This document shows, piece by piece, positions 17,928 through 62,057 of a stretch of DNA of 64,000 nucleotides. The stretch lies in the NCBI RefSeq assembly GCF_001677475.2, contig NZ_CP015229.1; one strand, written 5' to 3'. Source of the stretch: Escherichia coli (GTDB lineage Bacteria > Pseudomonadota > Gammaproteobacteria > Enterobacterales > Enterobacteriaceae). Made by a program: the position numbers and the translations under genes. The notes under the pieces were generated by a model that was not told where the DNA came from, did not search any database, and saw only the letters and a program-made list of their open reading frames with translations. How positions within the stretch are numbered: the first letter of the stretch is position 1; every line of letters starts with the position of its first letter.

Positions 17928-17977
17928 GTGGATTGAGATGTGGACTGAACTACAGTCCACATCAAGATCGTATCCGG

Positions 17978-49555: not shown

Positions 49556-50980
49556 ATGCAACATAAGTTACTGATTAACGGAGAACTGGTCAGCGGCGAA
49601 GGGGAAAAACAGCCTGTCTATAATCCGGCAACGGGGGACGTTTTACTGGAGATTGCCGAGGCATCCGCAGAGCAGGTCGATGCTGCTGTGCGCGCGGCAG
49701 ATGCAGCATTTGCCGAATGGGGGCAAACCACGCCGAAAGTGCGTGCGGAATGCCTGCTGAAACTGGCTGATGTTATCGAAGAAAATGGTCAGGTTTTTGC
49801 CGAACTGGAGTCCCGTAATTGTGGCAAACCGCTGCATAGTGCGTTCAATGATGAAATTCCGGCGATTGTCGATGTCTTTCGCTTTTTCGCCGGAGCAGCT
49901 CGCTGCCTGCATGGTCTGGCGGCAGGTGAATATCTTGAAGGTCATACTTCGATGATCCGTCGCGATCCGTTGGGGGTCGTGGCTTCTATCGCACCGTGGA
50001 ATTATCCGCTGATGATGGCTGCGTGGAAACTGGCTCCGGCGCTGGCGGCAGGGAACTGCGTAGTGCTCAAACCATCAGAAATTACCCCGCTGACCGCGTT
50101 GAAGTTGGCAGAGCTGGCGAAAGATATCTTCCCGGCAGGCGTGATTAACGTACTGTTTGGCAGAGGCAAAACGGTGGGAGATCCGCTGACCGGACATCCC
50201 AAAGTGCGGATGGTGTCGCTGACGGGCTCTATCGCCACTGGCGAGCACATCATCAGCCATACCGCGCCGTCCATAAAGCGTACTCATATGGAACTTGGAG
50301 GCAAAGCGCCAGTGATAGTTTTTGATGATGCGGATATTGAAGCGGTGGTCGAAGGTGTACGTACTTTTGGCTATTACAATGCCGGACAGGATTGTACAGC
50401 GGCTTGTCGGATCTATGCGCAAAAAGCCATTTACGATACGCTGGTGGAAAAACTTGGTGCTGCAGTGGCAACGTTAAAATCGGGTGCACCGGATGACGAG
50501 TCTACGGAGCTTGGACCTTTAAGCTCGCTGGCGCATCTCGAACGCGTCAGCAAAGCGGTAGAAGAGGCGAAAGCGACAGGGCACATCAAAGTGATCACTG
50601 GCGGTGAAAAGCGCAAGGGTAATGGCTATTACTATGCGCCGACGCTACTGGCTGGCGCATTACAGGACGATGCCATCGTGCAAAAAGAGGTATTTGGTCC
50701 GGTAGTGAGTGTTACCCTCTTCGACAACGAAGAACAGGTGGTGAACTGGGCAAATGACAGCCAGTACGGACTTGCATCCTCGGTATGGACGAAAGATGTG
50801 GGCAGGGCGCATCGCGTCAGCTCGCGGCTGCAATATGGTTGTACCTGGGTCAATACCCATTTCATGCTGGTAAGTGAAATGCCGCACGGTGGGCAGAAAC
50901 TTTCTGGTTACGGCAAGGATATGTCACTTTATGGGCTGGAGGATTACACCGTCGTCCGCCACGTCATGGTTAAACATTAA
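49556..50980 (+). CDS. patD: Gamma-aminobutyraldehyde dehydrogenase (ALDH family)
   Basis: Track ORF, 474 aa; ALDH motifs ELGGKAP and catalytic Cys region. Confidence 0.9.
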
Positions 50981-51019
50981 GGATAATATTGCAGATCGTA
51001 AGAGTATGAGAAGATCTTG

Positions 51020-51054
51020 CGTACTGTCAGAGAGTTGATTTCTCTGACAGTACG
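51020..51054. terminator. Large hairpin between convergent patD and yncL (14-bp perfect stem)
   Basis: CGTACTGTCAGAGA / TCTCTGACAGTACG with 7-nt loop. Confidence 0.5.
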
Positions 51055-51076
51055 TGTTGCGTGCAAAATCACTACA

Positions 51077-51172
51077 TCAAATAAACCAGCCAAATCTCAT
51101 AGAGATAAGAGTAAACAAACCAACAGCAGCAAAGACATTTATCAGTACTACAGTTCTACTGGAAACATTCAT
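51077..51172 (-). CDS. yncL: Small membrane protein YncL (31 aa)
   Basis: Not in ORF track; hand-translated minus strand MNVSSRTVVLINVFAAVGLFTLISMRFGWFI. Confidence 0.7.
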   Translation of the reverse strand: MNVSSRTVVLINVFAAVGLFTLISMRFGWFI

Positions 51173-51366
51173 TTTTGCCACCTTTTATCATTGCCCCTAT
51201 GTGTATAGTACGGGTTAAGAAAATCCGCAATAATACTCATTCTGAAGATGGATAAGGGCAAGTTGCTGTTTGATGATTTTTTCTCAAACCGGTTAAAAAA
51301 CTTGATGTACATCAAAAAATGACGCATATTTGCGCGCGTTTTATTCATCTGGCTGGACGCCCGTAC

Positions 51367-51540
51367 ATGTCTTTCTATCAACACATGCTTGTTTTTTATG
51401 CGGTTATGGCAGCAATCGCATTTCTTATCACCTGGTTTCTTTCTCACGATAAGAAACGCATCCGTTTCTTAAGCGCCTTTCTGGTGGGGGCAACATGGCC
51501 GATGAGTTTCCCGGTGGCGCTGTTGTTTTCACTGTTTTAA
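51367..51540 (+). CDS. ortT: Orphan membrane toxin OrtT (YdcX), 57 aa
   Basis: In-frame within track ORF 51319..51540; start at ATG 51367 (MSFYQHMLVFYAVMAAIAFLITWFL...). Confidence 0.8.
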   Translation: MSFYQHMLVFYAVMAAIAFLITWFLSHDKKRIRFLSAFLVGATWPMSFPVALLFSLF

Positions 51541-51625
51541 ATCTTATGCATTGGCTTGACGGCACCACGCAGACTTATATCATTTGGATGAATCGATAAA
51601 TTTCACAAGTGGCTAAGGAGAAAGT

Positions 51626-51859
51626 ATGTCGCATCTGGATGAAGTCATCGCGCGCGTGGATGCCGCGATTGAAGAGAGCGTCATTGCCCATATGAACGAA
51701 TTATTAATCGCCCTGAGCGATGACGCGGAGTTAAGTCGGGAAGATCGCTACACCCAGCAGCAGCGTTTGCGCACCGCTATTGCTCATCACGGTCGCAAGC
51801 ATAAAGAAGATATGGAAGCGCGCCACGAACAGTTAACCAAAGGCGGCACCATCCTCTGA
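51626..51859 (+). CDS. ydcY: Small protein YdcY
   Basis: Track ORF, 77 aa; matches remembered YdcY. Confidence 0.8.
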   Translation: MSHLDEVIARVDAAIEESVIAHMNELLIALSDDAELSREDRYTQQQRLRTAIAHHGRKHKEDMEARHEQLTKGGTIL

Positions 51860-52309
51860 TTAAAATGAGCGTCTGGCCACCAACCAGGCGCCAACCACAA
51901 GTAAAATTGCGCCACAAATTGGTCCGAACAACGCCCGTAGTGGTACGCCATGACTGCGGAAGATATCCAGAACCAGACCGCCAATCAGCTGGCTGGCGAC
52001 CAGTACTGCAATAGTTGTCGCCGCTCCCACATTCTGATATCCGCTGATACTAGCGAAGACAAAAAACGAACCCAGCAAGCCAGGTATAAGTGTCCACCAG
52101 CGCACGCTGGACACCAGTTCGCCAAACCCCGCCATGCCTTGTTTAAACCATAAAATAGAAACAAAGAGCACAATCCCCACCAGTGAGTTCAGCAACATGG
52201 CGATGAGAATGGTAGAGGAGGTCTGGGTGATGCGCACCATAAGCGTGTTCTGGATTACCAGACCAATTCCGGCGGCAATCAAAAAAGCAAGGGTGAGCGA
52301 CTGATTCAT
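51860..52309 (-). CDS. ydcZ: DMT-superfamily inner-membrane protein YdcZ
   Basis: Track ORF, 149 aa; hydrophobic. Confidence 0.85.
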   Translation of the reverse strand: MNQSLTLAFLIAAGIGLVIQNTLMVRITQTSSTILIAMLLNSLVGIVLFVSILWFKQGMAGFGELVSSVRWWTLIPGLLGSFFVFASISGYQNVGAATTIAVLVASQLIGGLVLDIFRSHGVPLRALFGPICGAILLVVGAWLVARRSF

Positions 52310-61877: not shown

Positions 61878-62057
61878 TTAAAATCCTAGCGATTTCAATA
61901 GAGACAAAATAAATTCATATAAAAATCATGCCGTTATATGAAATCATGGTAAATACTTTCAAATCTCTATTGATTTGAAAATGATTCCACACTACATTGC
62001 ACGATATGCCGTGAGCTACTTTATAGCGTAGCTCACGGGGGAATCTGAAAGGATTAC
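61878..62057. promoter_or_regulatory. Prophage early control region (operators, divergent promoters, transposition enhancer) by position
   Basis: Intergenic AT-rich region between divergent repressor and ner; individual operators not resolved by eye. Confidence 0.5.

Follow-up and report, generated by a model that had tools for sequence, protein, structure and literature searches.

The locus considered here raises the question of what an unusually long hairpin does between two convergent genes when no strong U-tract flanks it, and which of the two genes it serves. Within the 64,000-nt stretch of Escherichia coli DNA that was analyzed (contig NZ_CP015229.1; hereafter, the window), the hairpin spans positions 51020 to 51054. 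On one side lies patD (plus strand, 49556 to 50980), which encodes aminobutyraldehyde dehydrogenase and whose stop codon is located 39 nt before the hairpin; on the other side lies yncL (minus strand, 51077 to 51172, stop codon included), listed among the open reading frames and in the RefSeq annotation as the gene of a 31–amino acid small membrane protein. The original prediction had placed a 14-bp perfect stem with a 7-nt loop between these convergent genes, and this description is borne out by the window allele. In the sequence CGTACTGTCAGAGA-GTTGATT-TCTCTGACAGTACG, the arms at 51020 to 51033 and 51041 to 51054 are complementary at 14 of 14 positions and enclose a loop at 51034 to 51040.

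The length of the stem is indeed unusual, as had been claimed. Among all perfect hairpins of the 64-kb window it is the longest, the runners-up having 11 bp, and a 14-bp perfect hairpin was not reached in any of 30 Markov shuffles of the window. The arm-loop-arm pattern, searched with up to three mismatches allowed, was found just once in the window, and 100 dinucleotide shuffles produced no occurrence of it. The runners-up are located at 17937 to 17963 (11-bp stem and 5-nt loop) and at 62009 to 62038 (11-bp stem and 8-nt loop).

The hairpin is predicted to be stable on both strands. When folded alone, the minus-strand RNA has an energy of −23.6 kcal/mol (z = −7.9), and the plus-strand RNA, in which G-U pairs lengthen the stem to 16 pairs, has an energy of −26.7 kcal/mol (z = −6.4). 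The stem is followed by the tail CAAGAUCUUCUC on the minus strand and by UGUUGCGUGCAA on the plus strand. As originally stated, neither contains a strong U-tract: the canonical run of ~5 to 8 nt located within 0 to 2 nt of the stem is absent from both strands, no A-tract is found upstream of the hairpin, and a consensus terminator scan flagged it on neither strand. An Rfam scan of positions 50000 to 52000 at E ≤ 10 returned no match overlapping 50981 to 51076.

Published 3′-end maps reveal which strand uses the hairpin. In the Term-seq data of Adams et al. 2021 (PMC7815308, supplement 1), a minus-strand 3′ end of MG1655 is located at 1517039, with 75,265 reads in LB at OD 0.4 and 536,300 reads in LB at OD 2.0, a sevenfold increase from exponential to stationary phase; a third entry comes from M63 medium. 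We checked the register of the table on thrL, where the 3′ end corresponds to base 51 of each 61-mer. With this register, the yncL 3′ end falls at ...GACAGUACG-CAA, 3 nt beyond the stem, which is equivalent to window position 51017 on the minus strand, the transfer of MG1655 coordinates to the window being based on an assumed colinearity that is backed by comparison of K-12 with the window. As calculated from the K-12 yncL coordinates 1517099 to 1517194 (PMC10687069), the end is located 60 nt after the yncL stop codon. The Adams table labels it “antisense to patD”; the RNA concerned is the yncL transcript. TRS, which is independent of Term-seq, calls the hairpin site the “Primary” terminus of yncL, with a longest U run of 2, and folds the same hairpin at −21.6 kcal/mol in the K-12 allele (PMC10687069). 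The TERMITe supplements mention neither patD nor yncL. All these experimental 3′-end data, as well as the Rho data considered below, were obtained with the K-12 allele, whose stem has 13 bp and which shows one difference from the window in the flanks. An outer 8-bp helix (GAUUUUGC/GCAAGAUC) was also predicted around the hairpin and was set aside; mature yncL RNA would be unable to form it because the mapped 3′ end lies inside the 3′ arm of this helix.

The 5′ part of the transcription unit is consistent with the increase in stationary phase. A CTATACA box at 51202 to 51208 on the minus strand, ~30 nt 5′ of the yncL start codon, is likely a σS-type −10 element of yncL; this box (CGTACTATAC) is kept in Escherichia, in Citrobacter, and at a Klebsiella-like yncL locus. 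A transcript running from the box to the hairpin would be roughly 180 nt long. The Salmonella orthologue of yncL was first annotated as a small RNA, STnc1110, that is σS dependent and was later shown to be the yncL mRNA (PMC5437024). The small RNA–like appearance of this short, discrete, and σS-dependent orthologous transcript would be explained by the defined 3′ end and ~180-nt size of yncL RNA. Orthologues of yncL are matched by Pfam family PF28073 (YncL).

Transcription of yncL does not necessarily end where its mRNA does. In a bicyclomycin experiment (PMC7815308, supplement 2), a minus-strand region of Rho termination was assigned to MG1655 position 1516753, ~286 nt beyond the hairpin. Its approximate equivalent in the window is 50731 on the minus strand, a low-resolution position that is antisense to patD. 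Upstream and downstream read numbers changed from 220 and 9 in untreated cells to 106 and 72 under bicyclomycin, and the Rho score was 16.6 (P = 5e-21), a measure that is based on 800-nt windows in one dataset and gives no fraction of polymerases stopping at the hairpin (PMC7815308). With bicyclomycin, the downstream/upstream ratio on the yncL strand is therefore 0.68. The read-through is sensitive to bicyclomycin, and therefore polymerases coming from upstream continue well beyond the hairpin when Rho is blocked; the drug could also unmask additional antisense starts within patD.

The RNA just 3′ of the mapped end has a composition that may suit Rho. A C-rich, G-poor, U-rich untranslated tract at 51016 to 50975 on the minus strand contains 10 C and 4 G residues in 42 nt and is, on the basis of its sequence, a candidate Rho-utilization (rut) region. 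Over 80 nt downstream, the ratio of C to G is 1.6 to 3.0 in Escherichia, Citrobacter, and Superficieibacter, a modest signal. The motif GATCTTC 3′ of the hairpin is conserved between Escherichia and Citrobacter. Just after the mapped 3′ end (51012 to 51016, minus strand), GATC is invariant in all 11 aligned Escherichia and Citrobacter sequences, while its neighbors vary; it may belong to a rut element, or be a target of a nuclease or of Dam.

A class of transcripts with these properties was described by Dar and Sorek 2018 (PMC6061677). According to that report, Rho-dependent transcripts have precise steady-state 3′ ends directly after stable stem-loops that lack U-tracts, C is mildly enriched over G downstream, and the stem-loops protect against polynucleotide phosphorylase (PNPase) and RNase II. 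The yncL hairpin shares with this class a stable stem-loop at the 3′ end, the lack of a U-rich tail and of an A-tract, the excess of C over G downstream, and bicyclomycin-dependent read-through, the last known from a literature table of one dataset. In contrast to the Rho-dependent genes of Dar and Sorek, which were on average less expressed, yncL reaches a high abundance in stationary phase.

We think that the hairpin is probably the protective 3′ stem-loop of a stationary-phase–induced, Rho-terminated yncL mRNA. A polymerase transcribing yncL would run through the hairpin, which offers no U-tract for release. Rho would then load on the untranslated C-rich RNA just past the hairpin and, over the next few hundred nucleotides, end transcription in the antisense patD region. 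The tail would be trimmed by 3′→5′ exonucleases back to the stable stem, and trimming would leave a precise, protected end 3 nt past it, presumably stabilizing the yncL mRNA. This sequence of read-through, Rho action, and trimming is favored because the anatomy of the hairpin matches the class described above. With 13 to 14 perfect pairs, the yncL stem is said to be long for the stem-length distribution of that class. The steady-state 3′ end itself is compatible with other routes, for partial intrinsic termination without a U-tract or endonucleolytic cleavage would produce the same end.

Comparison between species revealed that the hairpin belongs with yncL. In 80 patD loci of other species, we looked for yncL and the intergenic sequence, and a search of protein representatives and their encoding contigs added three further distinct yncL loci. 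In three species of Citrobacter, yncL is located 2.3 kb from patD, with genes for a major facilitator superfamily (MFS) transporter and an AraC-type protein between them, and a homologous hairpin, CUGGCAGAGAGA...UCUCUCUGCCA, follows the yncL stop codon. The hairpin is also present in divergent Escherichia (loci L004 and L088), where a C-G pair replaces a U-A pair of E. coli. In Escherichia albertii, both yncL and the hairpin are absent within ~1 kb downstream of patD, and the patD gene is followed there by an AT-rich sequence that opens with a canonical stem and a U run (L005, 3934 to 3975). The more distant yncL loci carry nonhomologous stable hairpins soon after the stop codon, which lack U-tracts in Superficieibacter and at locus L084. 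Because it is kept with yncL across loci, the hairpin is a 3′ structure of that gene, and its adjacency to patD reflects the E. coli gene order. A hairpin owned by patD was considered and rejected, as the Citrobacter hairpin stays with yncL and the E. albertii patD has a canonical terminator of its own.

The stem appears to be conserved as a structure. When 11 sequences were aligned on the yncL strand, both sides were found changed in 2 of the 14 pairs, in five cells: one is the U-A to C-G replacement and the other, U-A to G-C, is a compensatory change in the Citrobacter hairpin. Paired cells amount to 92%, compared to 26 to 45% when the 3′ partner columns are slid, in a sample of 11 sequences with two independent events. 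Both covariation events, small as the sample is, point toward a base-paired structure and not a sequence motif.

The main competing explanation is that the hairpin is a noncanonical intrinsic terminator for yncL only, at which many polymerases stop without a U-tract and Rho deals with the remainder. As would be expected in this case, the very stable stem has a strong and precise steady-state 3′ end at its base. In its terminator-like size and energy, its position soon after a stop codon, and its location between convergent genes, the hairpin resembles a canonical intrinsic terminator. Moreover, at the Klebsiella-like yncL locus the equivalent position is occupied by a canonical terminator with an A-tract, a GC-rich stem, and a U-tract, so termination right after yncL is a conserved outcome. 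A canonical terminator, however, has the U-tract and A-tract, whereas the E. coli RNA ends only 3 nt past the stem in a tail (CAAGAUCUUCUC) whose longest U run is 2, and read-through downstream is sensitive to Rho. Release at intrinsic terminators is typically located deeper in a U-tract than 3 nt past the stem. Nor does the hairpin behave as Rho independent, to judge from the low-resolution bicyclomycin-sensitive region downstream, and the ratio of 0.68 with bicyclomycin suggests that most polymerases pass it. We therefore consider intrinsic termination without a U-tract possible but unlikely as the origin of the end.

The relation of yncL to patD suggests another reading. ExcludonFinder lists patD-yncL among 165 convergent E. 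coli gene pairs with overlapping transcription (PMC12288877), and Rho-limited read-through from yncL, which runs antisense into patD, has this excludon-type overlap in common with them. The hairpin might then be a shared two-way element that caps and protects both transcripts of the patD-yncL excludon, a reading we regard as doubtful. It would add, with equally little likelihood, that a terminator belonging to patD was lost in the short allele and that C-rich, rut-like sequence lies beyond the stem on both strands; in the window allele, patD does have no terminator of its own. If the two-way reading were true, strong, σS-driven, and Rho-limited yncL read-through antisense to patD would tune putrescine catabolism in stationary phase. 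No evidence that the overlap regulates patD or yncL was found.

Alternatively, the 3′ end could be made by an endonuclease, the hairpin then protecting the upstream product. The cutting enzyme could be RNase E, at the single-stranded AAG/AUC past the stem, or RNase III, on duplexes formed between the patD and yncL transcripts where they overlap. The abundance of yncL mRNA is altered in RNase E and/or RNase III mutants (PMC3082872). The listed excludon-type overlap of the pair and the GATC at the 3′ end that is invariant across Escherichia and Citrobacter agree with such cleavage. However, no endonuclease is needed to explain Rho-dependent read-through, and cleavage-site data for yncL RNA were not found in the literature searched. 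The 14-bp stem is also shorter than typical RNase III substrates, which counts against this enzyme. Overall, endonucleolytic formation of the end is very unlikely.

A bidirectional intrinsic terminator serving both patD and yncL, one of the two roles originally put forward, is highly improbable. The palindrome folds on both strands, more stably on the plus strand (−26.7 kcal/mol), it lies between convergent genes, and patD in the window has no other terminator-like structure. The symmetry of A-tract and U-tract expected of such an element is, however, absent from both sides, and on the yncL strand there is Rho-sensitive read-through. Mapping of 3′ ends by Term-seq on both strands had been proposed as the check, and the published MG1655 data answer it for each strand separately: the minus-strand end is at the hairpin, and a plus-strand end is not listed. 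No plus-strand 3′ end containing the hairpin occurs in any sheet or condition of the Adams tables, where the three entries are on the minus strand and patD is poorly expressed, and the TRS tables (PMC10687069) contain none for patD; the low expression of patD limits the weight of this absence from the three Term-seq conditions and the TRS tables. Furthermore, patD and yncL are among the convergent pairs listed for overlapping transcription, the hairpin is evolutionarily linked to yncL and not to patD, and patD has a terminator-like hairpin of its own in E. albertii and in an insert-bearing E. coli allele described below. The other suggested role, that of an RNA-stability or 3′-end element, survives for the yncL strand only, where two datasets place a strong 3′ end 3 nt past the stem.

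A DNA-level palindrome (a protein site, a cruciform, or a REP-like repeat) or a chance occurrence has next to no probability: perfect dyad symmetry and GATC sites at the flanks would fit the former, but the hairpin has a single copy in the window and per E. coli genome and matches no Rfam family, whereas REP elements have many copies with a shared consensus, the two-arm changes keep pairing rather than sequence while the loop is free to vary, and chance is excluded by the shuffles.

The hairpin is thus real, conserved, functional-looking, and of a well-described kind, and two public datasets already list its 3′ end. Its annotation should be assigned to yncL, not to patD or to both genes, and beyond annotation the finding has little importance. 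As a protective 3′ stem-loop of yncL mRNA, it joins the class of 3′ stem-loops without a U-tract that protect transcripts terminated by Rho, of which it is a clean and conserved example. For genome scans, it suggests that when a long hairpin lacking a U-tract is found between convergent genes, 3′-end protection of one transcript is a likelier role than bidirectional termination.

The hairpin varies within E. coli. The 14th pair is specific to the allele: the stem has 13 bp and the loop 9 nt in K-12 and, as estimated from identity bands, in the majority of E. coli genomes. The window differs from the K-12–type allele by three adjacent substitutions at 51033 to 51036 (AGT versus CAC on the plus strand), which affect the loop and the closing pair, and the loop sequence varies freely between alleles. 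By the same identity bands, the window’s version of the hairpin is present in roughly 20% of E. coli records; an exact match to the window’s 65-mer was found in none of the E. coli records searched. There is one hairpin locus per E. coli genome, and the two matching places seen per genome are most simply explained by the palindrome matching on both strands.

The surrounding locus is also polymorphic. In at most 1174 of 5415 complete E. coli genomes, or up to roughly a fifth, patD, the hairpin, and yncL are not covered by one contiguous match. In the rows that were inspected, a low-GC segment of ~1.3 kb is located between the patD stop codon and the hairpin (window 50971 to 50988; L001, 2687 to 4013). 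An O-acetyltransferase related to CatB is encoded in this segment, which has an imperfect 8-bp direct repeat (ACATTAAG / ATATTAAG) on either side and carries, right after patD, a terminator-like hairpin with a T-rich tail (L001, 2696 to 2721) that is absent from the short window allele. The polymorphism arose by either insertion or deletion of the segment. In E. coli LAM_HS, a laboratory stock (L003, 3164 to 3861), IS1A is located between patD and ortT and no yncL is annotated; a 300-nt query matched there through its first 108 bases only, and both yncL and the hairpin appear to be missing.

Two further observations concern neighboring sequences. Upstream of ortT, a short GC hairpin (ACGCATATTTGCGCGCGT) is present at approximately 51322 to 51339 of the window. 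A weak orphan plus-strand 3′ end (window 51335; MG1655 1517357; 848 reads in LB at OD 0.4; PMC7815308) is located at this hairpin, which is also overlapped by a subthreshold Rfam match to STnc320 (17.3 bits compared to a gathering score of 50). Last, an 82–amino acid database protein (P0002) corresponds to YncL in which the TGA stop is changed to a Leu codon, so that translation continues across the hairpin into antisense patD; natural loss of the stop codon or an error in sequencing would account for it.
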